A stretch of DNA of 37,027 nt from an uncultured Candidatus Saccharibacteria bacterium (lineage in GTDB: Bacteria; Patescibacteriota; Minisyncoccia; Phycocordibacterales; Phycocordibacteraceae): the NCBI GenBank assembly GCA_964357805.1, contig CAYHMS010000003.1, forward strand, positions 1 through 37,027, written 5' to 3'. The notes below the pieces were generated by a model. The model was given only the letters and a program-made list of their open reading frames with translations, did not search any database and was not told the DNA's origin. This document shows, piece by piece, positions 1 to 17,993 of this stretch. Both the position numbers and the translations under genes were made by a program. Positions within the stretch are counted from its first letter, which is position 1; every line of letters starts with the position of its first letter.

Positions 1-95
1 GTGAGCGCCCCGCCGAAGAAACTCGTACCGCTGACATAACTCGTCCCGTGCACTGCGAAGCCCGCAGAGGGCGAAGTAGTGCCGATGCCGACGTT
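1..95. repeat. 95-bp exact repeat, copy 1 (starts at the window edge)
   Basis: Bases 1-95 (gtgagcgccccgccgaagaaactcg...gccgatgccgacgtt) are identical to 1786-1880. Both copies lie in the coding frame of the giant gene (GNVGIGTTSPSAGFAVHGTSYVSGTSFFGGAL). Confidence 0.9.
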
Positions 96-3000
96 CCCGC
101 TCGGGTTGATGTAGAGAGAGTTCGCGGAGGCCGCCTGATTCACCACCAGAGCGGCGTTGTTGCCCGCCGAGAAGCCGCCCGAGAAGGTACTCGTCGCCGT
201 TGTGCTTGTCGCGAGGAAATACGAGGCGCGGGCGTAGTCGCCGAAGTGCCCGATGCCTTCTACCGAGAGTTTGTAGGTCGGAGAGGTGGTCCCGATGCCG
301 ACGTTGCCGGTAGAGAGCGTGGTGTCCGTGCCGTCAAGTCCAGTAGCGAAAATCAAGTTACCAATGTTGAGCGTGTTCGCGCTATTCACGGCGGGAGTGT
401 CAATGTTGTAGCCGATGACGATGTTGTTACTGCCGGTGGTAAGTGTTTCCCCCGCGTAATTGCCCAGTAGTGTGTTGTTACCGCCGGAAGAAACAGCGGC
501 TCCAGCCCGATATCCTATTCCCAGATTATTAGAACCGGCATTCGCGTTAAGAGCGTAGGAGCCGATGCTGATACTGCTTGAAGGATTACTCTGCTGGTTT
601 GCTTGGTAGCCGATGGCGATATTATTACTGCCGGTAGTAAGGGCGAGAAGAGGACCGCCGCCGCCAACTGCGATATTGTTGGCGCCGGAGACATTGTTCT
701 GGAGGGCGAGGTAGCCAACCGCGAGATTGTCGTTGCCCGTGGTGTTGGAAAAGAGAGCTTTTGCGCCGAATGCGGCATTTTCGTTGCCAGTGGTGTTCGC
801 CTTTCCCGCATTCAGACCGACAAAAGTATTATTGAGCGTTGATGTACTTGCCCGCAATTCCAGCGACACATTGCCGAGCGGGTCGCGGAGCGTGATAATC
901 GGCGTGCTGGTGGCGGAGTTGGTTATGTCCAAGCGCGACGCGGGCGCCGTGTTCCCAATCCCGACGTTGCCGCTTGAATTCCAAATACCAGAACCGGGGA
1001 AATACGCGGTGTTTGAGACCGACAACTGCGTGGTGGAAGCGTTGCCGAGCGTGGAGAGGCCCGTAACATTCAGGGTTGAAGTGGCGGTAACCGCCCCGCC
1101 GACAAAGAGCGAACTGGAAATGTATCCCGTGCCGTGCACCGAGAGCAGTTGCGCCGGACTCGTCGTCCCGATGCCGACGTTGCCGTTCGATCTTATTCTC
1201 ATTTTTTCTCCACCTACTCCGGTAAAAATATAACCGTCATAACCTACCTCATCGCCATAGAAATACAAATATCCATCGGTTACATTCCTCCCAATATTAT
1301 AGCCTTGCGCGTTTGAACTATTTGCCAATCTGAAATTATAACCATCCCCAGCGACGCTTAATTTATATCCCGGACTCGTCGTCCCGATGCCGACGTTGCC
1401 TTGTATGATTAATCCATTTGACGGAGCCGCCGTCCCAGCGTACCCGATACCGACGCTCGCACCCCCCGCAAAGGCTGATTCACCCAACACACTTAACTTT
1501 GACACAGGACTCGTCGTCCCAATCCCGACGTTGCCTTGTATGATTAATCCGTTTGACGGAGCCGCCGTCCCCGCGTACCCGATACCAACGCTCGCTCCTC
1601 CCGCAAACGCTGATTCACCCAACACACTCAGTTTGCTCACCGGACTCGTCGTCCCGATGCCGACGTTGCCGCTACTATTCCATATCCCTGACCCCGGGAA
1701 ATACGCGGTGTTTGAGACCGACAACTGCGTGGTGGAAGCATTCGCCAGTGTAGTGAGACCCGTAACATTTAACGTTGACGTTGCCGTGAGCGCCCCGCCG
1801 AAGAAACTCGTACCGCTGACATAACTCGTCCCGTGCACTGCGAAGCCCGCAGAGGGCGAAGTAGTGCCGATGCCGACGTTGCCGGCAGATGTGATGTTAA
1901 AAAGGTAGCCGCCGCTGGAGGAGGCGATGCGGAAAATGTCGGCGGTTTGGCCGGCGACGGCTTTCAGGTCAAGCGTGGTGACTGACGTAGAAGCGGAGGC
2001 GTTTTCTATATAGAGCGGATGGTTGAACTCAAACCGCTCGCCGGCATTCCAGGTGAGGAGCGCGTTCGGCGATACGCTTCCGCGCTCAAAGGCGAGATAG
2101 GAGTTCTCGGTGTCGGCGGTGGCATTGTCCGAATTGATGGTGAACGTCTCCGCGACGAGATTGCCGCCGGTCAGGGTGCCCACGAGCGTGGTGGCGTTGA
2201 CTTCGTTGGCATAGATTTTGTCAAAGCGCACTCCTGCCGTGCCGATATCCACCGTGTCGTCCAAGGCCTGAATGTTCCCGATGATGGTATTGCTGCCGAT
2301 GCGGAGCGTTCCCGCCGACGCCGTGATGTCGTGATTGCCCGTGCCGGTGAAGGTGAGACCGGCGCCGGCGCCGGTCAGTACCGCGCCGGTGGTGCCGTCA
2401 AGCATGAAATTGCCGGATACCGCGAGGGCGCTTGAAGGCGAGGTGGTGCCGATGCCGACTAATCCTCCGTTCGTAACGATGAAATTCGTGGCGGTGGATG
2501 AACCGACGACGAAGGCGGGGCCGCTGATGCCGTTCGGGTTGACCGAAAGGAGTCCCCAGGGGCTGGTGGTCCCGAGCCCGAGGTTGCCGGAAGAATCAAT
2601 GCGCAGGCGCTCCGCGCCGCCGGTGGAGAGAGCGAGCGAGGAGGCGGCGGGCGACCAGAGGCCGGTCGTAAGGTCGCCCGCGAAGGTGTATGCGGGCGCC
2701 GCCGCGGCGCCGAGATTTGATGCGATGAAGTTGAGCGCGGTGGTCGTCGCAGTGGCGAGGATGGAGCCATCGGTCGTGTTCACCGCGCCGACGCCGAGCC
2801 CGCCGGTCAGGTATGCGGAGCCGTTTATGCTGAGCGTAGCCGAAGGCGAAGTCGAAGCGAGACCGACAAAGCCCGTGTTGCTTGATATGTACAAGAGTGG
2901 CGAGGAGGTGCCGACGGTGAGGAGACCGTCGCCGTAGGGCGTCGTGGTGCCGACCGAGAGGCGGCCCGCAAAGGTGCTGGTCGCGGTCGTGGAAGTGGCG

Positions 3001-4772
3001 GTGAAGTAGGGGGAGGAGATGGAGGTGCCGGCGGACACGACGGCGGGAGTGACGGTGCCCGAGACGGCGAGGTCGCCGGTAACGGTCGTCCCGCCGAGAG
3101 CCGTCGTGCCACCCGTGAGGTTAGTAAAGGTACCGGTTGTTGCAGACACCAAGATGCCGCTGGTAAGCGAGCCGCCACGAAAGTCGCCGTTGGTCACGAT
3201 GAGCTCGTTAAGCTTCTGTATCATATTGACTTGTTGGATGGTCGTTTGGTTGGTCACTACCTGACGGCTGACGGGCTGAAGCAGACCGGATACCGTTGCG
3301 AGGATGTCGGTGCGAAGTCCTGCGAGCGACTGATTCATAAAATCCTCGGAGATTCCTTTTACAATCGTGTTGTATGTGGGATACGAATTTACCGTTTGCT
3401 TTTGAGTGGAGGTCGCGATGGCGAGCGTAGGCTCAGGCGGGACGACACCGGGCAAAACGATGGTGGGCGCTGGAGCGAACAAGAACGCAAGTCCGCGATT
3501 CGCCGCGCTGAAGAAACTCTTAACCGTCTCGTAGGTGGCGAGCGCCACTTGTTGGCCGACTGTGAGTCCTTGAAGCACAGCGGCAACCTGATTGTTTGTT
3601 CGAAGTCGAACTTCAATTGAATTAAGTGCGAGAGCACCCTTGCCGAGTGCGCCGAGATACGCGTTTTGGACCGTGTCGGGCGCCGAAGCGATAAACAATC
3701 CCGCCGAATAAAAAACGTTTCGCGTTCCTTTTGCACTCTCATACGCGAGGCGGCCGGCAGCCGCAAGCGATGCGAGGTAGCCCTGCGACATGGTGTCGGT
3801 AAACGCTACGAAGCGGCGAGCCCCTGCATATTCTGCGTCGAAGACCGCGCCCGCGATACGCGGCGACATTTCTGCGACCCCGTAGGAAATCGCCACGTCA
3901 GCGCGTATCGCCGCGTGCGTCGCCTCAATGATTGCCGTGCCGAACGCGAGATTTGCTTGATTGACGAGGTGGGGTGTTTCTGCGAAGAGAAGCGGCAGCG
4001 AGGTGATGAACGCATACACATCACGTGCTGCCGTTTGTACATTTTTAAATGTAATCGGCGTGACCGAAAAAGAAATTGTTGATGGGAAAGAAGTAACACG
4101 AGGTTCGCGATGAGTACTAACAATCGCCAGGGGGAGTGGAGAGAAATCTAAGTCTGTAAGAAGCGATAACTTTGCTTCGCTAAAGTTACGCAGGGCAAGC
4201 GCGAGTGCACTCTTTGTTACAACGCGCGGAGCAATCTCATTCACTTCTATTCTCACGGCATCAATTCTCGATGCGATGCGTGACGGGATGCCGCCAAACG
4301 TATCAGAGAACCCGGAAGCGGCTTCGCGTACAATCACTGCCGCTTGATGTGCGAGCTGCGACACTGTCACTGCGCGCGCCGCGAATGCTCCGGAGACAAC
4401 CACCGCCGTCGCGAGTGAGAGCGCGAGAACCTGCCCCCATAACGGCCTATCGGACATAAGGGACATCTGCTGTCCAATACTTTTATGCAGCGTATGCAAG
4501 GGTGCATTAAGGACACGATGGAGCGGAAAACGATGTGCGCGATATTCAGCCTCGCGCGCACGCGCGAGCGCGCGCGCGTAATCGATCTTGCGACTCCCTT
4601 GCTCGTCGAGGAAGCGCGTCAACGACTCACTGTCGATAAGCCAACTGTGTCCGACCCTTCTGCCGATAATTTTTCCAGAACGCGCAAGGCGTGCAAGATA
4701 GTCCGAAGTGTAGCCGGATAGTTCTCCCGCATTTTTTGTCGTTATGAAATTTTTATCAAAGAGTGTATCCAT
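1..4772 (-). CDS. Giant membrane-anchored fibre/adhesin-like protein; 5' end complete, 3' end beyond the left edge (about 1590 codons in window)
   Basis: The minus frame opens at ATG 4772-4770 (MDTLFDKNFITTKNAGELSGYTSDYLARLARSGKIIGRRVGHSWLIDSESL...). It stayed open to position 3 in my hand translation. It is absent from the ORF track because it has no in-window stop, and no other ORF is listed in that minus frame across 4.7 kb. Domains: aa ~9-55 excisionase/MerR-type HTH; aa ~111-132 hydrophobic helix LWGQVLALSLATAVVVSGAFAA; an Ala-rich helical region; then at least 10 GNVGIGTTSP-x-KLSV units and NN(I/T)A(I/V)G head-like repeats. Confidence 0.8.
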   Translation of the reverse strand, partial: MDTLFDKNFITTKNAGELSGYTSDYLARLARSGKIIGRRVGHSWLIDSESLTRFLDEQGSRKIDYARALARAREAEYRAHRFPLHRVLNAPLHTLHKSIGQQMSLMSDRPLWGQVLALSLATAVVVSGAFAARAVTVSQLAHQAAVIVREAASGFSDTFGGIPSRIASRIDAVRIEVNEIAPRVVTKSALALALRNFSEAKLSLLTDLDFSPLPLAIVSTHREPRVTSFPSTISFSVTPITFKNVQTAARDVYAFITSLPLLFAETPHLVNQANLAFGTAIIEATHAAIRADVAISYGVAEMSPRIAGAVFDAEYAGARRFVAFTDTMSQGYLASLAAAGRLAYESAKGTRNVFYSAGLFIASAPDTVQNAYLGALGKGALALNSIEVRLRTNNQVAAVLQGLTVGQQVALATYETVKSFFSAANRGLAFLFAPAPTIVLPGVVPPEPTLAIATSTQKQTVNSYPTYNTIVKGISEDFMNQSLAGLRTDILATVSGLLQPVSRQVVTNQTTIQQVNMIQKLNELIVTNGDFRGGSLTSGILVSATTGTFTNLTGGTTALGGTTVTGDLAVSGTVTPAVVSAGTSISSPYFTATSTTATSTFAGRLSVGTTTPYGDGLLTVGTSSPLLYISSNTGFVGLASTSPSATLSINGSAYLTGGLGVGAVNTTDGSILATATTTALNFIASNLGAAAAPAYTFAGDLTTGLWSPAASSLALSTGGAERLRIDSSGNLGLGTTSPWGLLSVNPNGISGPAFVVGSSTATNFIVTNGGLVGIGTTSPSSALAVSGNFMLDGTTGAVLTGAGAGLTFTGTGNHDITASAGTLRIGSNTIIGNIQALDDTVDIGTAGVRFDKIYANEVNATTLVGTLTGGNLVAETFTINSDNATADTENSYLAFERGSVSPNALLTWNAGERFEFNHPLYIENASASTSVTTLDLKAVAGQTADIFRIASSSGGYLFNITSAGNVGIGTTSPSAGFAVHGTSYVSGTSFFGGALTATSTLNVTGLTTLANASTTQLSVSNTAYFPGSGIWNSSGNVGIGTTSPVSKLSVLGESAFAGGASVGIGYAGTAAPSNGLIIQGNVGIGTTSPVSKLSVLGESAFAGGASVGIGYAGTAAPSNGLIIQGNVGIGTTSPGYKLSVAGDGYNFRLANSSNAQGYNIGRNVTDGYLYFYGDEVGYDGYIFTGVGGEKMRIRSNGNVGIGTTSPAQLLSVHGTGYISSSLFVGGAVTATSTLNVTGLSTLGNASTTQLSVSNTAYFPGSGIWNSSGNVGIGNTAPASRLDITNSATSTPIITLRDPLGNVSLELRASTSTLNNTFVGLNAGKANTTGNENAAFGAKALFSNTTGNDNLAVGYLALQNNVSGANNIAVGGGGPLLALTTGSNNIAIGYQANQQSNPSSSISIGSYALNANAGSNNLGIGYRAGAAVSSGGNNTLLGNYAGETLTTGSNNIVIGYNIDTPAVNSANTLNIGNLIFATGLDGTDTTLSTGNVGIGTTSPTYKLSVEGIGHFGDYARASYFLATSTTATSTFSGGFSAGNNAALVVNQAASANSLYINPSGNVGIGTTSPSAGFAVHGTSYVSGTSFFGGAL
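1372..1641 (-). repeat. 2 x 135-bp tandem repeat inside the giant gene (45-aa unit)
   Basis: Units start with ggactcgtcgtccc at 1372 and 1507, and the next boundary is at 1642. The copies differ at roughly 15 nt, yet both translate to VSKLSVLGESAFAGGASVGIGYAGTAAPSNGLIIQGNVGIGTTSP. Confidence 0.9.
1786..1880. repeat. 95-bp exact repeat, copy 2
   Basis: Identical to 1-95. Identity ends at 96/1881 (c versus g). Confidence 0.9.
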
Positions 4773-5212
4773 GTCGGATATCCGAATTAACTAAATCATA
4801 CCTTATGTTTCCGGCGACCGGTGAGAAAAAATAATGGAGCGTGTGGATAAGATTTGGAAATTTTTGGCGAATATCCGGCTAAAAATTCGCCCTATACTAA
4901 TTTTTGCGCGTAGAGCCGCCTATACTCATGGGAATAACGCCTCGTATGGCCTCTCGCTGGCGTAAAAAGGACCCTCGCGGAGTCCAGTCGGAGACCTGAA
5001 GAACAATTCTGAAAAATAAAGCTGTAGAAATTCGTTTTTATCCGCCCACATCGCTTCACAAAGAAATTGTTTGGTCGTTTGCATACTAATTCAGACGCTA
5101 ATACTGATGCTGAAGTTTCTAAAATGCACCGTACCTGTTAGCTATATCGGATATGCGAAGTAAAAATATATCCTGAACACTGCGAAGCAATTTGGAACGT
5201 ATTTTTATACAC

Positions 5213-5245
5213 TTTTCGCACAATATTGAACACATTGTGCGAAAA
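5213..5245. repeat. Perfect 12-bp-stem inverted repeat in the non-coding gap (function unknown)
   Basis: ttttcgcacaat (5213-5224), a 9-nt loop, then attgtgcgaaaa (5234-5245). No clean U-tract follows on either strand. Confidence 0.6.
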
Positions 5246-5399
5246 TATGCGTTTAAAATCGCCTTTCCAAGCCGACGCTAAACATGCTCATGCCGTTTTA
5301 CGGCAAATAAGTCCCGAAGCGGCGTTTTTGGCAATTTAAATTCTTATCTGGATATATGTGTAAACTCGCCTATACAAGACGAGAAAATAGGTAAATAAG

Positions 5400-6080
5400 C
5401 TATTTATTATAGAATACAACTCCAGCTAATATACTTACTTGTCTATTCGAGAGTATATAGGTATCAAAATAACCGCTACCAAGAACTGCTGTAGTGGCTA
5501 AAATTACTGCAACAAGAGCTCCTGCAAGCTGCACCATTGGCATCACTATTGATTTCTTCCCTTTCCGTTCTTCCTGCTGTCGTATAGGTTCTTTTCTCGG
5601 TAGAAGCTCCTCTGGGGGGGCCTGATATATCGCCTTATATACCGTGCGAATGGGTATATTCACTTCTTTTTCGGGCTCTGGGACCGTGATTGGAGTTATT
5701 ATCGGTTCAATATCTCCAACACGGTCGAACCACGCGCGCCAAGAATCCTGTAAATGCTGTGAGAATTCTGACTCTTTTTCCTTGTCATCTTCCTCTCGCA
5801 ATCGATTTATCGAAGGAAGAAATTCATCTTTAGACGCCTCATAACGCGGCGCCTCCCACGTTGGTCTTTTTTCATTTTCTGTCGGTGGGGCATCCATTAC
5901 ATCGCCAAAGCGATGGTCTTTGATAGCCGATTCAAGCACATACCAACTACGCCCGACAAGACGCGCCGGCACTCGACCCTCCCGGCATAGCTGACCAATA
6001 TAATCCTTGGCGTATCCCGTTATTTTCGCGGCTCGCTTCGACGATACGTATTTCTTTTCCTCTATGAGAATCTCGTCCAT
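5400..6080 (-). CDS. Small excisionase/MerR-like HTH protein with a C-terminal TM anchor
   Basis: Track ORF 5400..6140. I prefer the ATG at 6080 (MDEILIEEKKYVSSKRAAKITGYAKDYIGQLCREGRVPARLVGRSWYVLESAI), because the longer form starts at TTG and overlaps the gatB stop. An acidic linker is followed by the hydrophobic helix VQLAGALVAVILATTAVLGSGYF near the C-terminus. Confidence 0.7.
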   Translation of the reverse strand: MDEILIEEKKYVSSKRAAKITGYAKDYIGQLCREGRVPARLVGRSWYVLESAIKDHRFGDVMDAPPTENEKRPTWEAPRYEASKDEFLPSINRLREEDDKEKESEFSQHLQDSWRAWFDRVGDIEPIITPITVPEPEKEVNIPIRTVYKAIYQAPPEELLPRKEPIRQQEERKGKKSIVMPMVQLAGALVAVILATTAVLGSGYFDTYILSNRQVSILAGVVFYNK

Positions 6081-6132
6081 ACTCGTAGTATAAGCATATC
6101 TCGGCTCGTAGGGAAGGGCTGTGCATAACCAC

Positions 6133-7560
6133 CTAATCAAGCTTCTCGATAAGCAATTTTTTGAAACTTTCTGGGTTCCCCGCCCCGCGGCTCTCCTTCA
6201 TCGCCTTCCCGATAAGGTACTGGAGTGCCGCCTGTTTGCCGCTCTTGTACTCCCCAACCGCCTTCGCCTCTGCAGCGATAACTTTATCCACCGCTTCCCC
6301 GAGCGCCGTGACATCGTGGACCTGTATGAGGCCTTGCTCCTTCGCTATGACGTCTGGGTCTCCGCCCTTTTCAACCATAATGAGCAAAGTGTCTTTTGCA
6401 CCGCGCGATGACAGATTGTGCGCGGCAAACATCCGTATAAGTTTTGCAAATGAAGCCGGTGTGGCATTCCCAGATTCTCCCGCGAGATCAGATATAAAAT
6501 AATTCGCCGCAAGCACGACAGGCTCATGTCCGCCATCAAGTTCTTTTACCACAGCATCAAAAAATACTCCGCGCGCGACGGAAGCAATGATACATTCAAC
6601 ATCCTCCGCCTTAAGACCGAATTTTGTATATCGCGCGCGCCGCTCCCACGGGAGTTCTGGCAAGGACGTGCGTATTGCTTCCGGCGAAAATTCAGAAATC
6701 TCTGAAAGGAACAGTTTCGGAAGGTCCGGCTCCGGGAAGTAGCGATAGTCGGCGCTCCCTTCTTTGAATCGCTGATGGAAGGTTTCCTGCTTCGCTTCGT
6801 CCCAACCGCGCGTCTCCTGCACCACCCTCTCTCCTGCTTTGATAAGCGCAGTTTGACGTTCTATTTCATAGGTAATCGCCCGTTCCACGGAACGGAATGA
6901 ATTTAAGTTTTTCACTTCGACTTTTGTTCCCAACAACGAAACAAGGTTCGACCTTGAGGATTCGGATTTAAGGTCGGACCTTGTTTCGCGCGCAACGCTC
7001 ACGTTTGCCTCTATCCGCATTTCCCCTTTCTCTAGATTCGCTTCGCCGGCACCAAGCGTACGCACAAGGAGCTGTAATTCGCGCGCAAAGCGTCCTGCGG
7101 TTTCTGCATCCTGTATCACCGGTTCGGTGACGAGCTCCATAAGCGGGATGCCGGCACGATTAAAATCCACCAATGACTTGTTTTGAGAATGTATCGAGCG
7201 GGCTGTATCCTCTTCAAGGTGCACGCGGGTGATGTCTACTCCCGCGAGTTTCCCGCCGGTAACCAGCGGATGAATATATTGGCTGATTTGATACCCCTTC
7301 GGAATATCCGGATAGAAATAACTCTTGCGGTCGAACTCGCTAAAGTCGGCGAGCGTCCCGCCCACGGCCGTACCGAGACGAAGAACATGACGTACCGCCT
7401 CCCGATTGATGACCGGCAGAGTCCCGGGATGCGCCATACAGACAGGACAGATATTTACATTTGGGCGCGTTTCATCTGGGTCGTTTTTTGAGTCGCAAAA
7501 CATCTTGGTTCGCGTCTTCAGCTCGGCATGTATTTCCAGCCCTATAGTGGGACGATACAT
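6133..7560 (-). CDS. gatB: Asp/Glu-tRNA(Asn/Gln) amidotransferase subunit B
   Basis: MYRPTIGLEIHAELKTRTKMFC...NICPVCMAHPGTLPV...VEVKNLNSFRSVERAI. Full-length GatB architecture with a C-terminal YqeY-like tail. Confidence 0.95.
   Translation of the reverse strand: MYRPTIGLEIHAELKTRTKMFCDSKNDPDETRPNVNICPVCMAHPGTLPVINREAVRHVLRLGTAVGGTLADFSEFDRKSYFYPDIPKGYQISQYIHPLVTGGKLAGVDITRVHLEEDTARSIHSQNKSLVDFNRAGIPLMELVTEPVIQDAETAGRFARELQLLVRTLGAGEANLEKGEMRIEANVSVARETRSDLKSESSRSNLVSLLGTKVEVKNLNSFRSVERAITYEIERQTALIKAGERVVQETRGWDEAKQETFHQRFKEGSADYRYFPEPDLPKLFLSEISEFSPEAIRTSLPELPWERRARYTKFGLKAEDVECIIASVARGVFFDAVVKELDGGHEPVVLAANYFISDLAGESGNATPASFAKLIRMFAAHNLSSRGAKDTLLIMVEKGGDPDVIAKEQGLIQVHDVTALGEAVDKVIAAEAKAVGEYKSGKQAALQYLIGKAMKESRGAGNPESFKKLLIEKLD
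6937..6988. repeat. 19-bp-stem inverted repeat (one mismatch) embedded in frame in gatB
   Basis: cgaaacaaggttcgacctt (6937-6955), a 14-nt loop, then aaggtcggaccttgtttcg (6970-6988). It encodes RETRSDLKSESSRSNLVS, within a loop that looks longer than in the GatB sequences I recall. Confidence 0.85.
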
Positions 7561-7561
7561 A

Positions 7562-8530
7562 TTAAGAGAGTATCACGGAGAGCGCACCGGCAAATATTTT
7601 GAGCGACACTTTGTCTTTTACCGATACCGGAAGCACTTCCCTGCCGGTCTCCCGAGCAAGGAGCTGTTTCTTCGTTTCGCACTCCAGCGCCGAGACGAGG
7701 TCCGTTTTAGACAGGACGACGAGCTCCTTCTTACTCGCTAGACCGTGTCCGAACGCCTCTAGTTCTCTCCTCACTTCCCCGTATGCCTTGAGGGGGTCGT
7801 CTTGGTCAGCCGAGACGAGATGCAGAAGGATTCCGGTGCGTTCAACATGCTTGAGGAATTTTATGCCGAGGCCCTTCCCAGCCGAAGCGCCTTCAATAAG
7901 GCCCGGTATGTCGGCGAGAATGCGCCCGTAGAAATCACCGAGATTCGGTTCCAGTGTCGTGAACGGATAATCGCCGACTTTTGACTTGGCCCGTGTTAGA
8001 GCGTTCAGGAGGGAGGACTTGCCCGCGTTCGGCAAGCCGATAAGCCCGGCGTCCGCAATGAGCTTGAGCGTGAGTTCGAGCTCCCCACCCTTCCCCTCTT
8101 TGCCCTGCGTTTGCTGGAAGGGATTCTGGTTCGTCGAACTCTTAAAACGAGCATTGCCTAATCCGCCTTTACCGCCGCGGAATAAGACGATGTGTTCATC
8201 CTCCTTCGTGAGCTCATACTCTTCTCCGGTTTCGACAACGCGCACAAACGTGCCGATGGGCACTTCTAAAATAACCGGGGCACCATTCTTGCCGTGTTTC
8301 AATTCACTTTTCCCCGCCTCGCCGTTCTCCGCATGAAATTTTTTCTCATAGCGATAGTGGGCGAGCGCAGCCAAGTCCCGGACGCCGACCAGAATGACAT
8401 CGCCGCCTCTGCCGCCGTCGCCGCCGGAGGGCCCGCCGCGCGCGGACTCCTTGGTGCGCAGCCAGCGGATGACGCCGTCGCCGCCCTTCCCCGACTTCGC
8501 ATGTATACTCGCCTCATCAACAAATGCCAT
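7562..8530 (-). CDS. obg: Obg/CgtA-family GTPase
   Basis: MAFVDEASIHAKSGKGGDGVIRWLRTKESARGGPSGGDGGRGGDV (glycine-rich Obg fold). G-domain motifs GLPNAGKSSLL and DIPGLIEGAS. Confidence 0.95.
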   Translation of the reverse strand: MAFVDEASIHAKSGKGGDGVIRWLRTKESARGGPSGGDGGRGGDVILVGVRDLAALAHYRYEKKFHAENGEAGKSELKHGKNGAPVILEVPIGTFVRVVETGEEYELTKEDEHIVLFRGGKGGLGNARFKSSTNQNPFQQTQGKEGKGGELELTLKLIADAGLIGLPNAGKSSLLNALTRAKSKVGDYPFTTLEPNLGDFYGRILADIPGLIEGASAGKGLGIKFLKHVERTGILLHLVSADQDDPLKAYGEVRRELEAFGHGLASKKELVVLSKTDLVSALECETKKQLLARETGREVLPVSVKDKVSLKIFAGALSVILS

Positions 8531-8672
8531 ACCACCACCCTAGCACAGGTGGAAATCCGAAGCACGAAGCACGAAATTCGAAATAAATTAAAAATAAGAG
8601 GATGGCTGCGCGGTACGAAGTTGGAAGATTAGAGTTCAACTTTCCGCATGGTAGAACTCAATGTATTGATTG

Positions 8673-8695
8673 TGATGGACACGTCGTGTCCATCA
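8673..8695. repeat. 23-bp perfect palindrome (left hairpin of the element)
   Basis: tgatggacacg-t-cgtgtccatca. It ends 2 nt from the transposase stop codon. Confidence 0.9.
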
Positions 8696-8696
8696 A

Positions 8697-9392
8697 TTAA
8701 TCAAACTCTGATTCAAGTTGCTCGAGTCGGTATAACATCGACTCTCGTGCGAATTTTTTGAAAGATTCTGGCGTTTCGAACAACTCTCCGAGCAAATCCT
8801 TTGTGATGATTGGCGACACTTGAGTACCTGCGTATGCTCCTAAACTACTGAATGGATCGCCTGCTATTCGTTCATACGCGTCGTCAAAGTTCTCAATCGC
8901 ACGTTGCACCCCGCCCGGGTAGAGCTCGAAAGGATTTTTTACCATTATGTATATTGCGAGGTTACGAAAATCAGTGTCCTCTTCAACTAAACGTGATTTA
9001 AATGGTCTCTGGAACAAAGAGCCATTTTCTCCATATTTCTCATTGATGAATTTAGAATAGGCCATACTCACGCGATGCATAAACCTGCTCGTACCGCCCT
9101 CGACAATCTCCTTAATCATAAGGTGCAGATGGTTTGGCATAATGCTGAAGGCAAGAATTGAAACAATTGGTTGTCGCTCTCCCCACGCATCAGGCCACTG
9201 AAAGTGCGCTAGATGCCCTGACATTTCAAGTTCACGTTTCCAATTGTCCGGCATTCGGTCGTTATGATTGAAATAATAAAAATTAAGAAGCAGTCGTCGC
9301 AAATCTCCTTTTTGCCGAAAGATAGGCAATTTCTTCACGCCACGAGTATATACATGGGCATATGAGTCGATACCGATAGGTTCACGAGCCAT
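8697..9392 (-). CDS. HUH/Y1 tyrosine transposase (IS200-like / REP-associated RayT-like)
   Basis: HUH motif in SIMPNHLHLMIKE and a catalytic-Tyr region in LAIYIMVKNPFE. I prefer the ATG at 9392 (MAREPIGIDSYAHVYTRG), because the longer track ORF (to 9431) would translate through the right hairpin. Confidence 0.75.
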   Translation of the reverse strand: MAREPIGIDSYAHVYTRGVKKLPIFRQKGDLRRLLLNFYYFNHNDRMPDNWKRELEMSGHLAHFQWPDAWGERQPIVSILAFSIMPNHLHLMIKEIVEGGTSRFMHRVSMAYSKFINEKYGENGSLFQRPFKSRLVEEDTDFRNLAIYIMVKNPFELYPGGVQRAIENFDDAYERIAGDPFSSLGAYAGTQVSPIITKDLLGELFETPESFKKFARESMLYRLEQLESEFD

Positions 9393-9415
9393 TATCAATT
9401 CAGAATAAATTGACC

Positions 9416-9454
9416 GACACGACGTGTCCATCAGAAGCGTGTGGACAACGCTTC
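9416..9454. repeat. Right-end hairpins of the element
   Basis: 13-bp palindrome gacacg-a-cgtgtc (9416-9428) followed by ccatca. A second hairpin follows: gaagcgt, a 7-nt loop, acgcttc (9434-9454). Confidence 0.85.
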
Positions 9455-9465
9455 AAATTTCGTGC

Positions 9466-11973
9466 TTATTGTTCTACGATCTCCCACCCTTCGGCGAGGA
9501 ACGGTTCGGCTTTTTTAAATTTGAGGGTTTTTGTCTCGTTGCCCTTCTTGATGGTGACAAAATCGTTGCGGCCGTGTCCGGCGGGCTTCACGAGCGGCGC
9601 TTGAACGCCTCCTTCTTCCTTCCCTGCAGCGATGAGCGCGGCGCGCGTCCTCTCTTCTTCAGCGCGAATACGCGCAGCATCGGCAGATTGGATACGCGGC
9701 AACGCTTCTGCCACTGCCGCTCTAATATTCTCTTCAAGCTGCCGAAAGCGCTGGAGCCCCTCGCGCCGGTACTCAATAAGGGGGTCTCGCTGACCGTATG
9801 CGCGAAGCGATACCGAGCGGCGCAGATAATCCATAGTCTCAAGATGCTCAAGCCAGAACGTATCAATAACCTGCAAGAGCAGACGACGGAGATGTTCTAC
9901 AAAGGTCGTACCGAGCTCACTCTTCTTCGCTTCGAGCGCTTCGGAGGAGCCTATGAGCGCACGAATGAGTTCTTCCATTTCTGCATCGCTCCCCAAAAGC
10001 GCGGCACGGCGGCGCGCATAGATGGCGAGACGCTGCGTATTCATCACATCGTCGTAGGCGAGTACTTGTTTGCGCGAGTCAAAGTTGAATCCTTCAATGC
10101 GGCCCTGGGCGGTCTCAAGCGAGCGCGTTATCATCGCACTTTCAATTGGCTCGTCTTCGGGGATGCCGAAACGTCCCATCACCTTCTTCAGAGTTTCAGA
10201 AGCAAAGACACGCATCAGCTTGTCTTCCAGCGAGACATAGAAGCGCGTCTCACCGGGGTCGCCCTGGCGGCCCGAACGGCCGCGCAGCTGGTTGTCGATG
10301 CGGCGCGCGTCGTGCCGCTCCGTGCCGACGACCATAAGACCGCCATTCGCGATGACTGCAGAGCGCATCTCCGGAGTCGCGAGCGCGCCGCCGAGCTTGA
10401 TGTCAACACCGCGACCTGCGAGATTTGTCGCGACCGTCACGCGCCCCGCCGAACCGGCGTTCGCGATAATCTCGCCTTCGCGTTCGTGATTCTTCGCATT
10501 CAATACTTCGTGCGGCACGCCTTCGCCCGATAGATACTCGCTGACCGTTTCGTTGTCTTCAATAGAGACCGTTCCCACAAGAACCGGTTGTCCCTTTATA
10601 TGACGCTCTTTCACCGCGCGGGCGACCGCGCGGTACTTCCCCGCACTCGTCTGGAAGATGAGGTCGTCATAATCCTTGCGCGCCGTCGGCCTATTGGTCG
10701 GCACTGCCACGACCTCAAGTCCGTAGACGGTGTAGAACTCCTCCTCGGAGGAGAGCGCGGTGCCCGTCATACCGGCGAGCCGCTTGTACATACGAAAGAG
10801 ATTTTGAAAGGTCACCGTCGCATAGGTGCGCGTCTCCGCCTGGACTTTCACGCCCTCCTTTGCCTCAACGGCCTGATGCAATCCTTCCGACCAGCGACGT
10901 CCGGGCTGAAGCCTTCCCGTGAATTCGTCCACAATAATGACTTCATTGTCTTTCACTACGTACTCTTTATCCTTCTGGAAGAGCGCCTTCGCGCGCACCG
11001 CCGTCTCAAGATGATGCGCGTACTTCACACCGCCCTCGGTATAGAGATTTTCAAGACCGAGCGCCGTTTCGGCCTTCTTCATGCCCTCTTCAGTGAGCTG
11101 GATGGCCTTCTGCTTTTCGTCAACAGTGTAATCCTCCCCTTCTTTCAGAGCGTTAACGATTCCGGCGAAACGCTCATAGAACATGTGCGAATCACCCGTG
11201 GGCCCGCTGATGATGAGCGGCGTGCGCGCTTCATCAATAAGGATGGAATCAACCTCGTCGATGATTGCGTAGTGATAGTGGCGCTGTACAATCTGTGATG
11301 CGTCGTAGGCGGTGTTGTCGCGCAGGTAGTCAAACCCGAGCTCGTTGTTGGTGACGTAGGTTATGTCCGCGGCATAGGCTTCTTTCTTTTCAACGGGACG
11401 CAGATAGTCATAGAACACTTTAAAAGAACCCTTGGCGTCGTGCTCGGCATCTTCTTCTTGCGAAACGTGCGACGAATCGTAACGATATGCGCCCGTACTG
11501 GTAACAACGCCGATGGTGAGCCCGCAATAGTCATAGACCTCTCCCATCCACGCGCCGTCGCGACGCGCGAGATAGTCATTCACCGTAACGACCTGCACCC
11601 CTTTGCCCGCGAGCGCGTGGAAGATTGCCGGAAGTGTTGCGACGAGCGTCTTCCCTTCGCCGGTACGCATCTCGGCAATCTTACCGCGAAGCAATGCAAG
11701 ACCGCCCAGTAGTTGCACATCAAAATGAGGTTGGCGGAGTGTGCGGCGAGCTGCCTCGCGCACGAGCGCAAAGACGAGCGGGAGGTCATTCTCGTTCGTC
11801 GCGCCCGCCGCCTCGGCGCGGGCGCGTATCTCCCCGAATCGCGCACATATCTCCTCGTCAGAAAGGCTTTTCAGCTCCTCTTGAAGCGCGTTCGCGGCCG
11901 TAACGACCGGCGCCGCGGCCTTCAAGAAGGCCGCGGATTGGTTCTTTGAGAAAAAATGGGAAAGCCCGAGCAT
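9466..11973 (-). CDS. secA: Preprotein translocase ATPase SecA
   Basis: The 849-aa track ORF carries SecA motifs (MRTGEGKTLVATLP, DEVDSILIDEARTPLIISG, TNLAGRGVDIKLGG). The start is probably ATG 11973 (MLGLSHFFSK) or 11979. The track's GTG start at 12015 lies inside a terminator hairpin. Confidence 0.95.
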   Translation of the reverse strand: MLGLSHFFSKNQSAAFLKAAAPVVTAANALQEELKSLSDEEICARFGEIRARAEAAGATNENDLPLVFALVREAARRTLRQPHFDVQLLGGLALLRGKIAEMRTGEGKTLVATLPAIFHALAGKGVQVVTVNDYLARRDGAWMGEVYDYCGLTIGVVTSTGAYRYDSSHVSQEEDAEHDAKGSFKVFYDYLRPVEKKEAYAADITYVTNNELGFDYLRDNTAYDASQIVQRHYHYAIIDEVDSILIDEARTPLIISGPTGDSHMFYERFAGIVNALKEGEDYTVDEKQKAIQLTEEGMKKAETALGLENLYTEGGVKYAHHLETAVRAKALFQKDKEYVVKDNEVIIVDEFTGRLQPGRRWSEGLHQAVEAKEGVKVQAETRTYATVTFQNLFRMYKRLAGMTGTALSSEEEFYTVYGLEVVAVPTNRPTARKDYDDLIFQTSAGKYRAVARAVKERHIKGQPVLVGTVSIEDNETVSEYLSGEGVPHEVLNAKNHEREGEIIANAGSAGRVTVATNLAGRGVDIKLGGALATPEMRSAVIANGGLMVVGTERHDARRIDNQLRGRSGRQGDPGETRFYVSLEDKLMRVFASETLKKVMGRFGIPEDEPIESAMITRSLETAQGRIEGFNFDSRKQVLAYDDVMNTQRLAIYARRRAALLGSDAEMEELIRALIGSSEALEAKKSELGTTFVEHLRRLLLQVIDTFWLEHLETMDYLRRSVSLRAYGQRDPLIEYRREGLQRFRQLEENIRAAVAEALPRIQSADAARIRAEEERTRAALIAAGKEEGGVQAPLVKPAGHGRNDFVTIKKGNETKTLKFKKAEPFLAEGWEIVEQ

Positions 11974-11987
11974 TGACATATAGTATA

Positions 11988-12028
11988 CCAAAAATAGAAA
12001 AATCCCTCCATTCACGAAGGGATTTTTC
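11988..12028 (-). terminator. Rho-independent terminator (minus strand)
   Basis: 11-bp perfect stem: gaaaaatccct (11997-12007) and agggatttttc (12018-12028), with a 10-nt loop. On the minus strand it is followed by TATTTTTG. Confidence 0.75.
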
Positions 12029-12039
12029 TTGGTACGAAA

Positions 12040-12096
12040 CTATGCGCGCTTCTTTGCTGCTTTGCGCTTCTTCGCGGCCTTACGCTTTTTTGCCAT
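12040..12096 (-). CDS. Candidate 18-aa polybasic micro-protein (MAKKRKAAKKRKAAKKRA)
   Basis: ATG at 12096 and TAG at 12042-12040. It lies between murB and secA and is followed within about 12 nt by the terminator. No clear Shine-Dalgarno sequence. Too short for the ORF track. Confidence 0.35.
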   Translation of the reverse strand: MAKKRKAAKKRKAAKKRA

Positions 12097-12234
12097 GGTG
12101 GTTGCGAATTATGGGTGAGGGTTGATATGTCGACCCGTCCGTCCTTCAACATTGTTCAGGACAAACGTTTCTACATGACAGTATGACGCGTTAAAAACTT
12201 TTTGTGTGAGAAAAAATTACGATGTGTGGATAAC

Positions 12235-13263
12235 TTATGAAAAAAAGATTTCACCGAATGTTTCCACCTCGCGTTCAATCGTGATGCCAGTCGCTCTCCG
12301 AACACGCTCGGTGACTTCGCGCGCAAGCGCGTCGACTTCTGCGGCGCGCGCGCCTGCGCGCGTGACAATAATGAGCGGTTGCTCTTCATACAGTCGCACG
12401 CGGCCTTTTGTAAATCCCTTGAGTGACAGAACATGGTCGAAGAGCCATGCGAGCGGAATTTTTACCGAACCATCCTCCTGCGAAAAGGTCGGAAGCCCCG
12501 GGAAACGCCTCTCGAGCGAATCTGCAAGCTCGCGCGAAATGATTGAATTCTTGAAAAACGAGCCGGCGGTGCCTTCTTCTGGCGCGTGAGGAAACTTTTT
12601 GGCGCGGATGGCGCGGATGGCGCGAGCGATGTCGGCCGGCGTCGAGAGCGGCTCTCCGGCGGCGTGCATACGGGCTACGTCGGCGTAGGCGATGTTTGGT
12701 ATCGCATTTTTTGCAAAACGCAACGCAACTTTCGTGATGATGAGTTCGCGATGTTTTTTAAAAAAACTTGTCCGATAGGCGAACGCGGCTTCGGCGCGAG
12801 TGATGCGTCGGCGCACACCAAGCGTACTATCGATACTATCGGCATACTCAAATACAGTAGAAAATTCCGCGCCGTAGGCGCCGATGTTCTGCACCGCCGC
12901 GCCGCCAATCGTGCCCGGAATACCCGCGAGGTTTTCGATACCGAAGATGCCGCGTCTCCCCACTTCGTCAACAACGTCGTCCCAGAGCGCGCCTGCCCCC
13001 GCGATGAGCACTATGCTTCCGTCGGCATTATGATATACACTATCGCGCATCGCGATTTTCAACACTACACCTTCGATACCTGTATCCGGCACAAGCACGT
13101 TGCTCCCTTTACCTAACGCGAACAAGGGGAGGTTCTGCGTCCGTGCGAGTGCTATCGCGTCTTCTATGTCTGCCTCGGTATGCGCTTCAACAAAAAAACG
13201 CGCCGTCCCACCCACGCCGAGCGTTGTGAGGGGCGCGAGCGGGACGTGTTCTTCCAGCTTCAT
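12235..13263 (-). CDS. murB: UDP-N-acetylenolpyruvoylglucosamine reductase
   Basis: MKLEEHVPLAPLTTLGVGGTARFF...GKGSNVLV...GAGALWDDVV. The ATG at 13263 overlaps the upstream TGA (ATGA). The track's longer N-terminus runs into the upstream gene. Confidence 0.9.
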   Translation of the reverse strand: MKLEEHVPLAPLTTLGVGGTARFFVEAHTEADIEDAIALARTQNLPLFALGKGSNVLVPDTGIEGVVLKIAMRDSVYHNADGSIVLIAGAGALWDDVVDEVGRRGIFGIENLAGIPGTIGGAAVQNIGAYGAEFSTVFEYADSIDSTLGVRRRITRAEAAFAYRTSFFKKHRELIITKVALRFAKNAIPNIAYADVARMHAAGEPLSTPADIARAIRAIRAKKFPHAPEEGTAGSFFKNSIISRELADSLERRFPGLPTFSQEDGSVKIPLAWLFDHVLSLKGFTKGRVRLYEEQPLIIVTRAGARAAEVDALAREVTERVRRATGITIEREVETFGEIFFS

Positions 13264-15425
13264 TGCCCTTCTATCTGTTTCAGAGCGTCCGCACCGGCAG
13301 AAGCCGCTTCTGGAAACTTCGCGATTGCGGCACGAATTGTTGCAGCGGCATTCACAGTATCGCCTGCCGCGTAGTAAGCTGCGGCGAGCGAGAACCATTT
13401 CTCAACACCCGCATCCGGCGCCGCCGCACGTACCTTCCATAACGCGATGAGCCGCGACCAGTTCTTCGCGCGATAATACGCGACCGCGAGAATGTCGCTA
13501 TCCACATTCGTGGTACCAAAGACGCTCTGCAACACCTTATCGGCCGTAGCTGTATCGCCAACGGCGAAGTTGCCAGCGGCGGCGTATATGGCGAGGTCGG
13601 TGAATTGCGGCCCGAGCTGGTACGCGGTATTGAAGTTCGTTTGAGCCGCCTTGATATTTCCCATATCCCATTCGACCGAGCCGGCCTCGATCCAGAAACT
13701 TTCTTTTTTCGGCGACAAGACGATGGCGGCTTGAATTTCTTTCAGTACATTCGCACCATCGCCAGCGGCGCGATACGCGTAGGAGAGTTGGAGGCGCGCG
13801 CGCGCATCAAGCGGATACGCGGCAACCTGCTTCTGCATCTCGCTCACTGCCAACGAGACCACTCTCTGTTTCTCTTCTTGTGTCGTCTGCGAACTTTGTG
13901 CAACAGACGCCGCAAACGAAACGAGTTGTTCACGAATCTCCTGTGCGGCAAAGGCCGGATGGCGAGCGAGGTCTTCAAAAGCGGCGATGTTCGCCTTGAT
14001 GCCGGCGGGAGACGGCGAAATCGCCTTAATAAGCTTGGTTGCTGCCTGCATGCCTGAAATATTGACGGACCAGACGAGTGCGAATACGGCAACAGCGGCT
14101 ATTGGGAGTGCGTACGTCACGCCGTCTGTAGCCGTGAGTTCAGGCATACGTTCGAATCGCTCGATGGGTCGCGCGACTTGTGAATCAATGAGCGCCAGTA
14201 TCGCAAAGAAGTATACGTACGAATAGAGATTGTCGAAGACGAAAATATTATGGATGGCGTATCCGACAAGCGCGGCGGTAAGCGCGATGCGTTCAGGCCG
14301 CGAAAGTTCAGAACTCTTCCACAAGAGCATAAAAGCCGAACCGAAAAGCGAAAGGTAGAGCAGGAATGCCGGCAGGCCCCCCGCGGAGAGCCAGTCAATG
14401 AATGCGTTGTGCGCCCGGTCAAACCATGGCTCTTGCGCATACAGCGATGGGTCATAATATTTGTTGAAAACATAATTGAAACCTTCCTGCCCCCAACCGG
14501 TAAGCGGACGCTCGAGGACTCCCTGAAATGCCATACGCCATATAGTGAAGCGCGTCTGACCGTCGGAGAGCGATATGGAGGAAACGCTCTGAAGAACGCG
14601 ATTGTTCTGAACGAAGTTAGAATCGCGCGCAATATAAAAACTGCAGATGAGGACGAGTATGAGCACAAGCGCGCCCGCGGCTGCGCCGCGGGCGCGCTTG
14701 CTCGCGGTAATTAGTGTGAGAAATGCGGCAAGCGTTAGCGCGAGAACGAGCCCAATGACCGTCCCGCGCGTCTCGGTAAAGAAAATGAGCACCGCTTCCA
14801 GAGCGGCAAGCGCGATAAGAGACCACTTGAGCCACGAATATTTTTCGGTGAGTGCGAGCCAAAGCGCGATGAATACATTAAAAAGGAGGTAGATTGCAAG
14901 ATAGGCAGAATTGCCGAGCGAGGCATCAATGCGCACCGAGCCCTGATGAATCGCGTAGGTGCCATTGAGTTGCAAAAGCGCGTATGCAGAAACGGCGACA
15001 GAAACCCCAAGCGAGGTCAGAAACCACGCACGCCATTTCTTTTCTACCCGGAGCACTGCGCTCGCTGAAAAGAAGAATCCGAGGAGATGGACGAGGAGCA
15101 CCCAGCCCTCCATGCGCTCAAAATTGCTCCAAAAGGCCTTCGCCGCATTCGGCGCGAATGCGTCCGCGATGAACATCCAGACGACAAAGGCGAGTACTGC
15201 CATTCCGACCCAAGAAAAACGCGGGCGATATTCCCTATCAAGAAATGCGAGCACCGCCCATCCCGCAACCGCCACCTCGACCAATATACGGAAATAAAAC
15301 GCCTTGCCAGTGATGAAGGGGAAAAAGTAGGTATTGGCGACCAGAAGCGGCGCGAGCGGAATCAAAAAGAGCGCGCCAAGCGCCACCCACCGCGCAACCT
15401 GCTTTGCGGTACCGTTGTCCTGCAT
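13260..15425 (-). CDS. O-antigen ligase/Wzy_C-like polytopic membrane protein fused to C-terminal TPR repeats
   Basis: About 12 hydrophobic segments. Ligase-type motifs FFTETRGTVIGLVLAL and AHNAFIDWLSAGGLPAFLLYL. The C-terminal ~270 aa are Ala/Tyr-rich and TPR-like (AAAYYAAGD, LSYAYRAAGD). Confidence 0.75.
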   Translation of the reverse strand: MQDNGTAKQVARWVALGALFLIPLAPLLVANTYFFPFITGKAFYFRILVEVAVAGWAVLAFLDREYRPRFSWVGMAVLAFVVWMFIADAFAPNAAKAFWSNFERMEGWVLLVHLLGFFFSASAVLRVEKKWRAWFLTSLGVSVAVSAYALLQLNGTYAIHQGSVRIDASLGNSAYLAIYLLFNVFIALWLALTEKYSWLKWSLIALAALEAVLIFFTETRGTVIGLVLALTLAAFLTLITASKRARGAAAGALVLILVLICSFYIARDSNFVQNNRVLQSVSSISLSDGQTRFTIWRMAFQGVLERPLTGWGQEGFNYVFNKYYDPSLYAQEPWFDRAHNAFIDWLSAGGLPAFLLYLSLFGSAFMLLWKSSELSRPERIALTAALVGYAIHNIFVFDNLYSYVYFFAILALIDSQVARPIERFERMPELTATDGVTYALPIAAVAVFALVWSVNISGMQAATKLIKAISPSPAGIKANIAAFEDLARHPAFAAQEIREQLVSFAASVAQSSQTTQEEKQRVVSLAVSEMQKQVAAYPLDARARLQLSYAYRAAGDGANVLKEIQAAIVLSPKKESFWIEAGSVEWDMGNIKAAQTNFNTAYQLGPQFTDLAIYAAAGNFAVGDTATADKVLQSVFGTTNVDSDILAVAYYRAKNWSRLIALWKVRAAAPDAGVEKWFSLAAAYYAAGDTVNAAATIRAAIAKFPEAASAGADALKQIEGQ

Positions 15426-15441
15426 AGTGCGGATAACTATA

Positions 15442-17208: not shown

Positions 17209-17993
17209 ATATCGAGAATATTCCGAATGAGGGATGACACCATCTGGTTGGCGACAACGTAATGAACTGAGTGAGTGAGAGGGTCAGCGACAGTGTAGAC
17301 GACATCGGCACCTGCGAGCCGGGCGAGCACAAGACCGGCGGCAATATCCCACCATTTGGTATGCCGACCAAAACATCCCCCGAGACGTCCTTCTGCAACA
17401 TACGTGAGGTTGAGAGAGGCGGATCCGGTTCGCAAGCATCCCATCGTCGCATCGTTTATCTTTTGAAATGCATTGAATTCAGCGTCTCTGTCCGGATGAT
17501 TCGCGCCAGAAAAAGTGCCGGCGCATAACACTTGCCCTGCCGGGAGATTCAAACTAGCGATACGAGTATGATTCTTGTAGACACCGAGACCGTCTCCACC
17601 GTAATACAATTCGTTCTGAAATGGGTTATAGACAACGCCGACTACCGGTTTACCTTCATCTACGTACGCAATTGACACCGCACAGAATGGAATTCTACTC
17701 ACGTAATTAACAGTGCCGTCAAGCGGATCAACTATCCAGTATGTTCCGGTCGCTAAATCAACCTTGCGCGACATACCGGACTCCTCCGCAACCACTGGAA
17801 TATCGCTTGAGGCATTGAGTATATTGATTATTTTTTGTTCGGCATACGTATCAACCTCGGTAGCGATATCTCTAAAAGATTCCTTACGATGTACCACAGA
17901 ACGTCCCGTTTCATCTACATATGACTGAAGGATTCCTCCCGCCGCAACTGCTGCAGAAAGAGCTAATTTCAATTGCGGTTGATACGAAGTCAT
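17205..17993 (-). CDS. Inositol-monophosphatase-family sugar-phosphate phosphatase
   Basis: VVAEESG, WIVDPLDGTVNY, WDIAAGLVLARLAGA. An ATGA overlap with the ABC gene was checked in the sequence. Confidence 0.85.
   Translation of the reverse strand: MTSYQPQLKLALSAAVAAGGILQSYVDETGRSVVHRKESFRDIATEVDTYAEQKIINILNASSDIPVVAEESGMSRKVDLATGTYWIVDPLDGTVNYVSRIPFCAVSIAYVDEGKPVVGVVYNPFQNELYYGGDGLGVYKNHTRIASLNLPAGQVLCAGTFSGANHPDRDAEFNAFQKINDATMGCLRTGSASLNLTYVAEGRLGGCFGRHTKWWDIAAGLVLARLAGADVVYTVADPLTHSVHYVVANQMVSSLIRNILDI

Follow-up and report, generated by a model that had tools for sequence, protein, structure and literature searches.

Two adjacent copies of a rare 45-residue cassette, identical in protein and diverged only silently in DNA, in a giant fibre gene of a groundwater Patescibacteria bacterium

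Introduction

Among described systems, those nearest to the element treated here are the mosaic adhesive trimer (MAT) fibres of Bdellovibrio, of which Bd2133 is one, and which the main text of their report depicts as intertwined trimeric β-helices with swappable tips, kin of the S74 tail fibres of phages, citing the L-shaped tail fibre of T5 (4UW8) and the K1F endosialidase (3GW6) (Caulton et al., Nat Microbiol 2024, PMC10769870). The DNA under analysis, hereafter the window, is a stretch of 37,027 nucleotides (nt), positions 1–37027 of contig C3 in G000, an assembly of 645,157 bases in 78 contigs that is 94.6% complete. At its beginning lies a giant gene for a fibre protein, in which a unit of 45 amino acids (aa), here called the cassette, stands twice in succession. 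We consider it likely that a rare 45-residue shaft cassette, its peptide under extreme purifying selection, is present here as two old copies side by side, in a surface fibre of the MAT or tail-fibre kind.

When residues 558–1590 of the window protein were compared with the sequences of the Protein Data Bank, Bd2133 (8OND_A) was the sole match at E ≤ 0.1 (E = 3e-9, 38.8 bits), and a 246-aa piece of the shaft taken alone reached E = 0.12 against 8OND; on this match the shaft is judged homologous to the MAT fibre Bd2133. The two proteins share the same type of recurring motif, which reads SGNLGLGTAAP and AGNVGIGATAP in the 8OND alignment, and by analogy the window protein would share with the Bdellovibrio fibres a large size, a surface location, repeated β-helix segments and mosaic or swappable parts, its relatives bearing an S74 domain or another tip. 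The capping loop of MAT fibres follows the pattern V-G-G/N-pi-X-X-P-X-X-X-L in the main text of PMC10769870; by eye, the junction motif of the window protein, V-G-I-G-T-T-S-P-V-S-K-L, resembles it, with one extra residue between V-G and P. Unlike the Bdellovibrio fibres, which in the same main text have an invariant N-terminal domain, the window protein begins with a helix-turn-helix-like segment and a hydrophobic one, and its host is a Patescibacteria bacterium. Its ultra-conserved shaft cassette goes without mention in the main text of PMC10769870, whose supplements may list related motifs.

A second group of counterparts comprises the phage tail fibres and tailspikes with an S74 chaperone. 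The S74 domain occurs in the relatives P0064, P0074, P0357 and P0416, the first two of which bear the cassette and match Pfam Peptidase_S74 above its cut-off, and many members of the family are named "tail fiber domain-containing protein". Setting the window gene apart from the phage fibres, viral contigs contained 0 instances of the cassette core, and the gene itself does not lie within a prophage. The S74 family (PF13884) was not found in G000 at its 94.6% completeness, the C-terminus of the fibre gene lying past the contig end. An atlas gives leads, to be taken as no more than that, toward the phage clusters PTL_trimer and T4 gp9/10 (scores of 0.90–0.93).

Tandem repeats in bacterial surface proteins can be kept alike, DNA included, by concerted evolution through gene conversion or unequal crossing-over. 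The window pair resembles such repeats in consisting of in-frame tandem units with identical peptides in a surface protein. It departs from them in its DNA, which concerted evolution would keep at least as alike as the protein: the pair is 89% identical in DNA and 100% identical in protein, and the likeness of the copies is therefore not the work of homogenisation. No paper was found that mentions the motif strings, nor was there one on this cassette among the papers listed for the Candidate Phyla Radiation, tail fibers or giant surface proteins, a search whose scope was papers other than the supplements of PMC10769870.

A tandem pair that differs only at silent sites

The features on which the comparison rests are the following.

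3–4772, minus strand: giant fibre gene; start codon at 4772, 1590 aa without a stop, C-terminus past window position 1
1536–1670, minus strand: cassette copy 1 (aa 1035–1079); GNVGIGTTSP junction motif plus 35-aa body
1401–1535, minus strand: cassette copy 2 (aa 1080–1124); peptide the same as in copy 1, motif codons GGG ATT ... CCT
1371–1400, minus strand: third junction motif, closing copy 2 (aa 1125–1134); codons as in the first motif

Tandem Repeats Finder reported one array only, with a period of 135, 2.2 copies and 90% matches at nt 1372–1670. A preliminary description of this DNA had placed the units at 1372–1506 and 1507–1641, which captures the right periodic repeat and the same 15 nucleotide differences but in the wrong register: those bounds lie one base out of frame, yielding stops on direct translation, and are displaced by about 30 nt from the natural boundary. 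Read in frame on the minus strand, aa 1035–1079 and aa 1080–1124 are identical at 45/45 residues, and the DNA is identical at 120/135 positions. The 15 differences fall in 12 codons and every one is synonymous, exactly as had been listed: GGC/GGG, ATC/ATT, CCG/CCT, AGC/TCA, AAA/AAG, CTG/TTA, GCG/GCC, GGA/GGG, GGA/GGT, GTT/GTC, GCG/GCT and AAC/AAT. The in-frame codon comparison thus bears out the claim of silent-only divergence, and turned up no non-synonymous difference. Protein identity continues for 10 residues into the third GNVGIGTTSP, with 3 extra silent differences that revert to the codons of the first motif. Within the assembly, tblastn finds the unit at these 2 places, and the next best match is 46% identical.

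Such an outcome is far beyond chance. Of the 405 single substitutions open to the unit, only 108 (0.267) are synonymous, and the peptide was kept in 0 of 200,000 simulations of 15 random substitutions. By the Nei–Gojobori method the pair has 36 synonymous (S) and 99 non-synonymous (N) sites with 12.8 synonymous (Sd) and 2.2 non-synonymous (Nd) differences, for a synonymous distance (dS) of 0.48; the Nd of 2.2 arises solely from path averaging through the serine AGC/TCA switch. An overlapping antisense gene was considered as a source of the constraint and rejected: one frame of the plus strand has no stop in either unit, yet the peptides it would encode in the two differ at 5 residues.

The same gene supplies an internal control in the form of a longer repeat.

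1641–1883, minus strand: first copy of the 81-aa repeat (aa 964–1044)
942–1184, minus strand: second copy of the 81-aa repeat (aa 1197–1277)

These copies differ at 16/81 residues, with a dS of 1.01 and a non-synonymous distance (dN) of 0.18, that is, a dN/dS of 0.177; this neighbouring repeat evolves normally. Had the tandem pair evolved at the same ratio, 8.4 replacements would be expected in it, and the probability of its carrying none is 2.3e-4. Adjacent units in related fibre loci were compared as 13 plus-strand pairs from 6 arrays. Twelve of them have diverged in DNA, and each of these shows changes in protein as well, 4–33 residues per pair; the remaining pair, in L083, is identical in DNA (0/144 nt). 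Outside this count stand L007, L054 and L073, taken on the minus strand, which show 8–22 residue differences in every open frame, as well as L006, open only in a minus-strand frame, and L078, which has no full pair in register.

The same cassette in other genes

The 45-aa unit recurs nearly unchanged in the otherwise different proteins P0016, where it is likewise in tandem, P0064, P0074 and P0078. A metagenome search with a degenerate DNA pattern fixing 12 core residues retrieved 12 loci, 10 of them distinct. The pattern makes no demand on the other 33 residues, yet these are nearly invariant in 12/12 loci. Flanking proteins are unrelated among the cassette loci, which represent about 10 gene contexts, and the 10-row alignment of the cassette (A1) has 42 invariant columns. 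DNA identity climbs from random to 73–100% exactly at the first junction motif and drops back about 160 nt further on. Compared pairwise, distinct copies differ at 9–45 of 135 nt and by 0–8 residues, with dS running from 0.23 to saturation, and silent-only pairs occur elsewhere too: L093/L096 (24 nt), L096/L099 (30 nt) and L096/L100 (28 nt) each differ by 0 aa. The silent-only pattern therefore belongs to the cassette and not to the window pair alone. The preliminary description had proposed very strong purifying selection on the peptide, and its near-invariance in about 10 other contexts, while the DNA differs at up to 45/135 nt, upholds that proposal.

A scan independent of the 12-residue pattern gave a concordant picture. 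When the 35-aa body was slid along 313 family proteins (864,458 residues), identities were bimodal: 9 windows in 8 proteins had 28–34 of 35, none had 20–27, and the rest had at most 19. The gap at 20–27 sets the cassette apart as a discrete, rare class, defined here by at least 28/35 body identities and by bounding GNVGIGT motifs, and both window units belong to it. One further protein, P0025, has a T in the core, and hence would escape the 12-residue pattern. In a protein search of 40 relatives, the best match outside G000 is 63% identical; the 100-aa tandem, compared with genome contigs in a search that was not exhaustive, reached at most 63% identity in the best 80 of at least 673 stretches; and among longer proteins no near-identical full-length orthologue of the fibre protein was found.

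It had also been argued that the serine AGC/TCA switch, out of reach by single synonymous steps, was special. Switches between AGY and TCN codons do occur at conserved serines under long-term purifying selection. Among 12 distinct copies both codon classes are present at all five serine positions; class switches are thus common at such divergence, and the one in the window is unexceptional.

The wider set of copies bears in addition on the idea that the DNA divergence was itself selected, DNA-identical tandem copies being lost by slippage or recombination and diverged pairs being favoured or simply surviving. Selection against recombinational collapse had been put forward for the window pair. 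Indeed, in register the copies share no identical run longer than 26 nt, and P0016 too, known here as protein, has the cassette in tandem. A run of 26 nt is short for efficient homologous recombination. Against this idea, non-tandem copies show equal or greater silent divergence, such that no tandem-specific force is required; L083 keeps a tandem pair without a single difference; and two copies 1.8 kb apart in the fibre gene itself differ at 1/96 nt, the second of them at the contig end:

3–98, minus strand: contig-end near-copy of aa 964–995 (nt 1788–1883), 1 nt difference in 96

Selection for divergence is accordingly very improbable as an account of the pair, and the proposal of protection from collapse is neither needed nor supported.

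A junction motif conserved as DNA

The GNVGIGTT motif that bounds each cassette behaves in the opposite manner from the body. Among the cassette copies its codons vary much less than body codons do (mean diversity 0.16 versus 0.52, Mann–Whitney P = 6e-6). A codon survey of 284 motifs from 79 loci in many phyla, with the same frames as background, found particular codons enriched in the motif.

GGC: 56% in the motif, 27% in the background
AAC: 53% in the motif, 35% in the background
GTC: 56% in the motif, 21% in the background
ATC: 56% in the motif, 28% in the background
GGG: 44% in the motif, 14% in the background
ACG: 42% in the motif, 18% in the background

An exact 18-mer of the junction word is present in 44/284 motifs, and G000 itself holds 14 instances of GNVGIGTT with mostly identical codons. 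In the groundwater runs the summed word depth is 4,500–17,600 in bins containing the motif versus 9–25 in unique parts, so that junction words are several hundred times as deep as the organism in the same metagenomes. The motif is conserved as DNA, and the cassette body only as protein. Either gene conversion between its numerous copies or recombination at the junction words would account for the former. As a side observation, this conservation of the motif as a DNA word was noted at 1–112 and 1786–1897 of the window as well as at the nine motifs listed further below.

Motif codons at about twice their background frequency, the 18-mer in 44/284 motifs and the several hundred-fold word depth together suggest a bolder extension, which we regard as speculative and rather unlikely: that the fibre genes of groundwater Patescibacteria, and possibly of DPANN archaea, form a community-wide cassette system in which GGC AAC GTC GGC ATC GGG ACG serves as a micro-homology crossover site and the frozen cassette as an adaptor. 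In such a system the junction word would let shaft and tip cassettes shuffle between genes and genomes, and the rare 45-aa cassette would do a specific job, for instance in docking, as a hinge or in processing, instead of merely filling out the shaft.

Origin of the two copies

A maximum-likelihood tree was built from 11 cassette DNAs of 135 nt, leaving out the partial L097 and the duplicates L101 and L102. It groups both window units with L103 in a single clade (support 97/99), within which unit 2 has a long terminal branch (0.13). Both window units end in SNGLIIQ, which is absent from the other copies among the 14 compared, though it occurs in P0416 and, as a near variant, in P0167. The clade and the common end favour duplication within one cassette lineage, and the two copies probably arose in that way, to judge from their sequences. 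L103, encoding P0074, is a sister copy in a quite different protein context, which implies that cassettes move between contexts.

Two parts of the unit nevertheless tell different stories. Over codons 34–45 the two units differ by 1 nt. Over codons 1–15 unit 1 is 1, 3 and 4 nt from the L103, L099 and L098 copies but 9 nt from unit 2, a pattern that could reflect a small conversion tract. It is these first codons that lend substance to the suggestion, made earlier, of repeats acquired from differently coded sources. Stated generally, the two copies could have come wholly or partly from different cassette lineages, joined or overwritten by recombination at GNVGIGTT words. Several further observations speak for such a mosaic: serine 12 is AGC in unit 1 and in L098, L099 and L103 but TCA in unit 2 and L093–L096, the junction codons are far less diverse than those of the body, the DNA bounds at the motifs are sharp with unrelated flanks beyond, and P0078 switches unit type after aa 1072. 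The clade that unites both units with L103 speaks against it, as does the SNGLIIQ end, common to both and rare elsewhere; clustering of the 12 changed codons along the unit is not significant (P = 0.30), and 135 nt is too short for mapping a conversion tract. On balance a mosaic origin is unlikely, though it deserves more credit than selection for divergence, and import from a foreign source is weakly indicated at most.

P0078 merits a separate word. Encoded on a 4,021-nt contig, it is identical to the window protein over aa 1–1072 and then passes into another unit type; compared with aa 1–1095 of the window protein, it differs at aa 1073, 1074, 1076, 1086, 1088 and 1090. Either related populations differ in their repeat arrays, it would seem, or one of the two assemblies is wrong.

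Copy number and assembly

Could the assembler have joined two variants of one unit, derived from different strains or paralogues? Evidence on this point comes from Logan contigs of groundwater runs. In run X1, two pieces without any difference from the window, 1425–1537 at a depth of 9.2 and 1508–1641 at 9.7, cover both bodies at a depth near that of the unique flanks (11.6–14.6). They share a 30-nt overlap in the motif variant specific to unit 2, as expected of adjacent nodes on one path; that they break there indicates that other sequences in the sample share the 30-mer. The pieces fit a tandem, short of proof. In runs X2 and X6 the unit bodies are barely covered or not covered at all, and X9 covers motifs only; these three runs are uninformative on copy number.

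Some circumstances do favour an artefact. The contig ends within the repeats of the gene, nt 3–98 nearly repeating nt 1788–1883; no Logan record spans the tandem, the X1 pieces breaking inside the junction motif of unit 2; P0078, on another contig, continues differently after unit 1; and the junction words are, by the depths given above, common to very many contigs in the same samples. Set against these are the two exact X1 pieces and their overlap, the fact that a false join would need to have happened across at most 26 nt of shared sequence, and the tandem of this very cassette found independently in P0016. An artefact is in our judgement the least credible of the alternatives, with only a slight chance of being right.

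The cassette in the fibre shaft

The reading preferred here, two old copies of a constrained shaft cassette, would run as follows. The cassette consists of the GNVGIGTTSP junction motif and then the body VSKLSVLGESAFAGGASVGIGYAGTAAPSNGLIIQ. It would lie in the extracellular shaft of an apparently membrane-anchored fibre protein, made by a small-genome Patescibacteria host in groundwater. After the duplication, only synonymous changes would have accumulated (dS about 0.5), replacements having been removed. The constraint probably stems from the close packing that a Gly-rich segment would have inside an intertwined trimeric β-helix, and perhaps the cassette has a specific docking or hinge role.

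A number of results weigh against this reading. The copy number rests on one assembly. The pairing of unit 1 with unit 2 has support of 61/76 only, leaving the order inside the clade unsettled, and over its whole length unit 1 is nearer L103 (9 nt) than unit 2 (15 nt). The 12-residue pattern excludes diverged descendants, so that the constraint is overstated at the 12 core positions. The cassette core is present in 1 of 401 same-order genomes searched, that one being G000, and such rarity is unexpected for an essential shaft element. Finally, AlphaFold2 monomer models were poor, whether of aa 990–1200 without an alignment (mean predicted local distance difference test, pLDDT, 35.4) or of aa 1020–1140 with the 10-row alignment A1 (pLDDT 50.4, no secondary structure), so that the structural reason offered for the constraint is an inference.

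The fibre gene and its genomic setting

Beyond the cassettes, the following parts of the gene can be recognized.

4599–4745, minus strand: helix-turn-helix-like N-terminal segment (aa 10–58); Pfam HTH_17, E = 0.0044, 17.7 bits
4377–4442, minus strand: hydrophobic segment (aa 111–132); highest Kyte–Doolittle 19-residue mean of the protein, 1.87 at aa 114
69–98, 279–308, 942–971, 1155–1184, 1371–1400, 1506–1535, 1641–1670, 1854–1883 and 2559–2588, minus strand: nine junction motifs
30–473, minus strand: stretch aligning best with the solved Bd2133 β-helix (aa 1434–1581)

The open reading frame (ORF) runs off the contig end, whence the protein has at least 1590 aa. Its HTH_17 match is sub-threshold (17.7 bits against a 27-bit cut-off); P0005, P0022, P0120, P0132 and P0416 are fibre proteins with MerR or HTH_17 at the N-terminus, and it is because of this N-terminal element that some family members are named "MerR family regulator". 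The hydrophobic residues 111–132 are a presumed membrane anchor, a role suggested by their composition. The rest of the protein is made of Gly/Thr/Ser-rich repeats with the nine GN(V/L)G(I/L)G motifs, and a Pfam search of the window protein found no family in this fibre part. The repeats are nonetheless widely matched: the fibre region by 3,119 of 8,000 scored candidates and a 55-aa unit by 14,177 representative proteins, both at E ≤ 1e-3.

The gene stands among housekeeping genes. GatB, encoded nearby, has its nearest named relatives in Patescibacteria, Paceibacterota, Parcubacteria and Kaiserbacteria, at 75–81% identity, and the sequencing runs that contain the stretch are labelled groundwater metagenomes. 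A 246-aa ORF (5400–6140, minus strand) adjoins the fibre gene; it has a similar helix-turn-helix-like start and a hydrophobic segment near its end, and no Pfam match at E ≤ 1e-5. Between obg and secA, at 8697–9431 of the minus strand, lies an IS200-like Y1 transposase domain (E = 7.6e-7). Further on, 13260–36994 of the minus strand encodes an O-antigen-ligase-like protein (Wzy_C plus TPR), an ABC exporter and a sugar pathway of the nonulosonic-acid type, comprising two NeuB, two PseB-like dehydratases, two DegT aminotransferases, a cytidylyltransferase, a UDP-GlcNAc 2-epimerase, a hexapeptide acyltransferase and methyltransferases. As far as the predicted functions go, this pathway may glycosylate surface proteins.

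Fibre repeats also turn up on other contigs of G000. Contig C68 (L106:1–1377, minus strand) carries a paralogous fibre repeat, GNVGIGTTSPWGLLSVNPNGIAGPAFVVGSST, comparable to window aa 729–760 and split by an intein (Pfam Intein_splicing, E = 3.9e-18) within which an NYN domain is nested (E = 5.1e-24); the PF01936 and PF14890 pair is also present in the large family proteins P0077, P0142, P0406 and P0425. Contigs C62 (L107) and C75 (L108) are short, open from end to end and made of further fibre repeats. C75 matches window aa 963–1052 at 80% identity, and C62 is a C-terminal-type piece like part of P0016, with a weak Ig-like match; either may continue the window fibre gene or a paralogue.

Significance

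What is new here is a rare cassette frozen as protein, in contrast with a junction motif frozen as DNA. Giant fibre proteins are encoded by some of the largest genes of Patescibacteria and, if MAT fibres and the tail fibres of phages are a guide, probably mediate contact with other cells. In a family that is otherwise very variable, a peptide left unchanged as its DNA diverges to the point of saturation indicates residues that must serve for more than added length. For those who scan genomes for tandem pairs identical in protein and diverged in DNA, the first question to ask is whether the unit is conserved outside the pair. The DNA-conserved junction motif, for its part, offers a testable handle on the shuffling of mosaic fibre genes.

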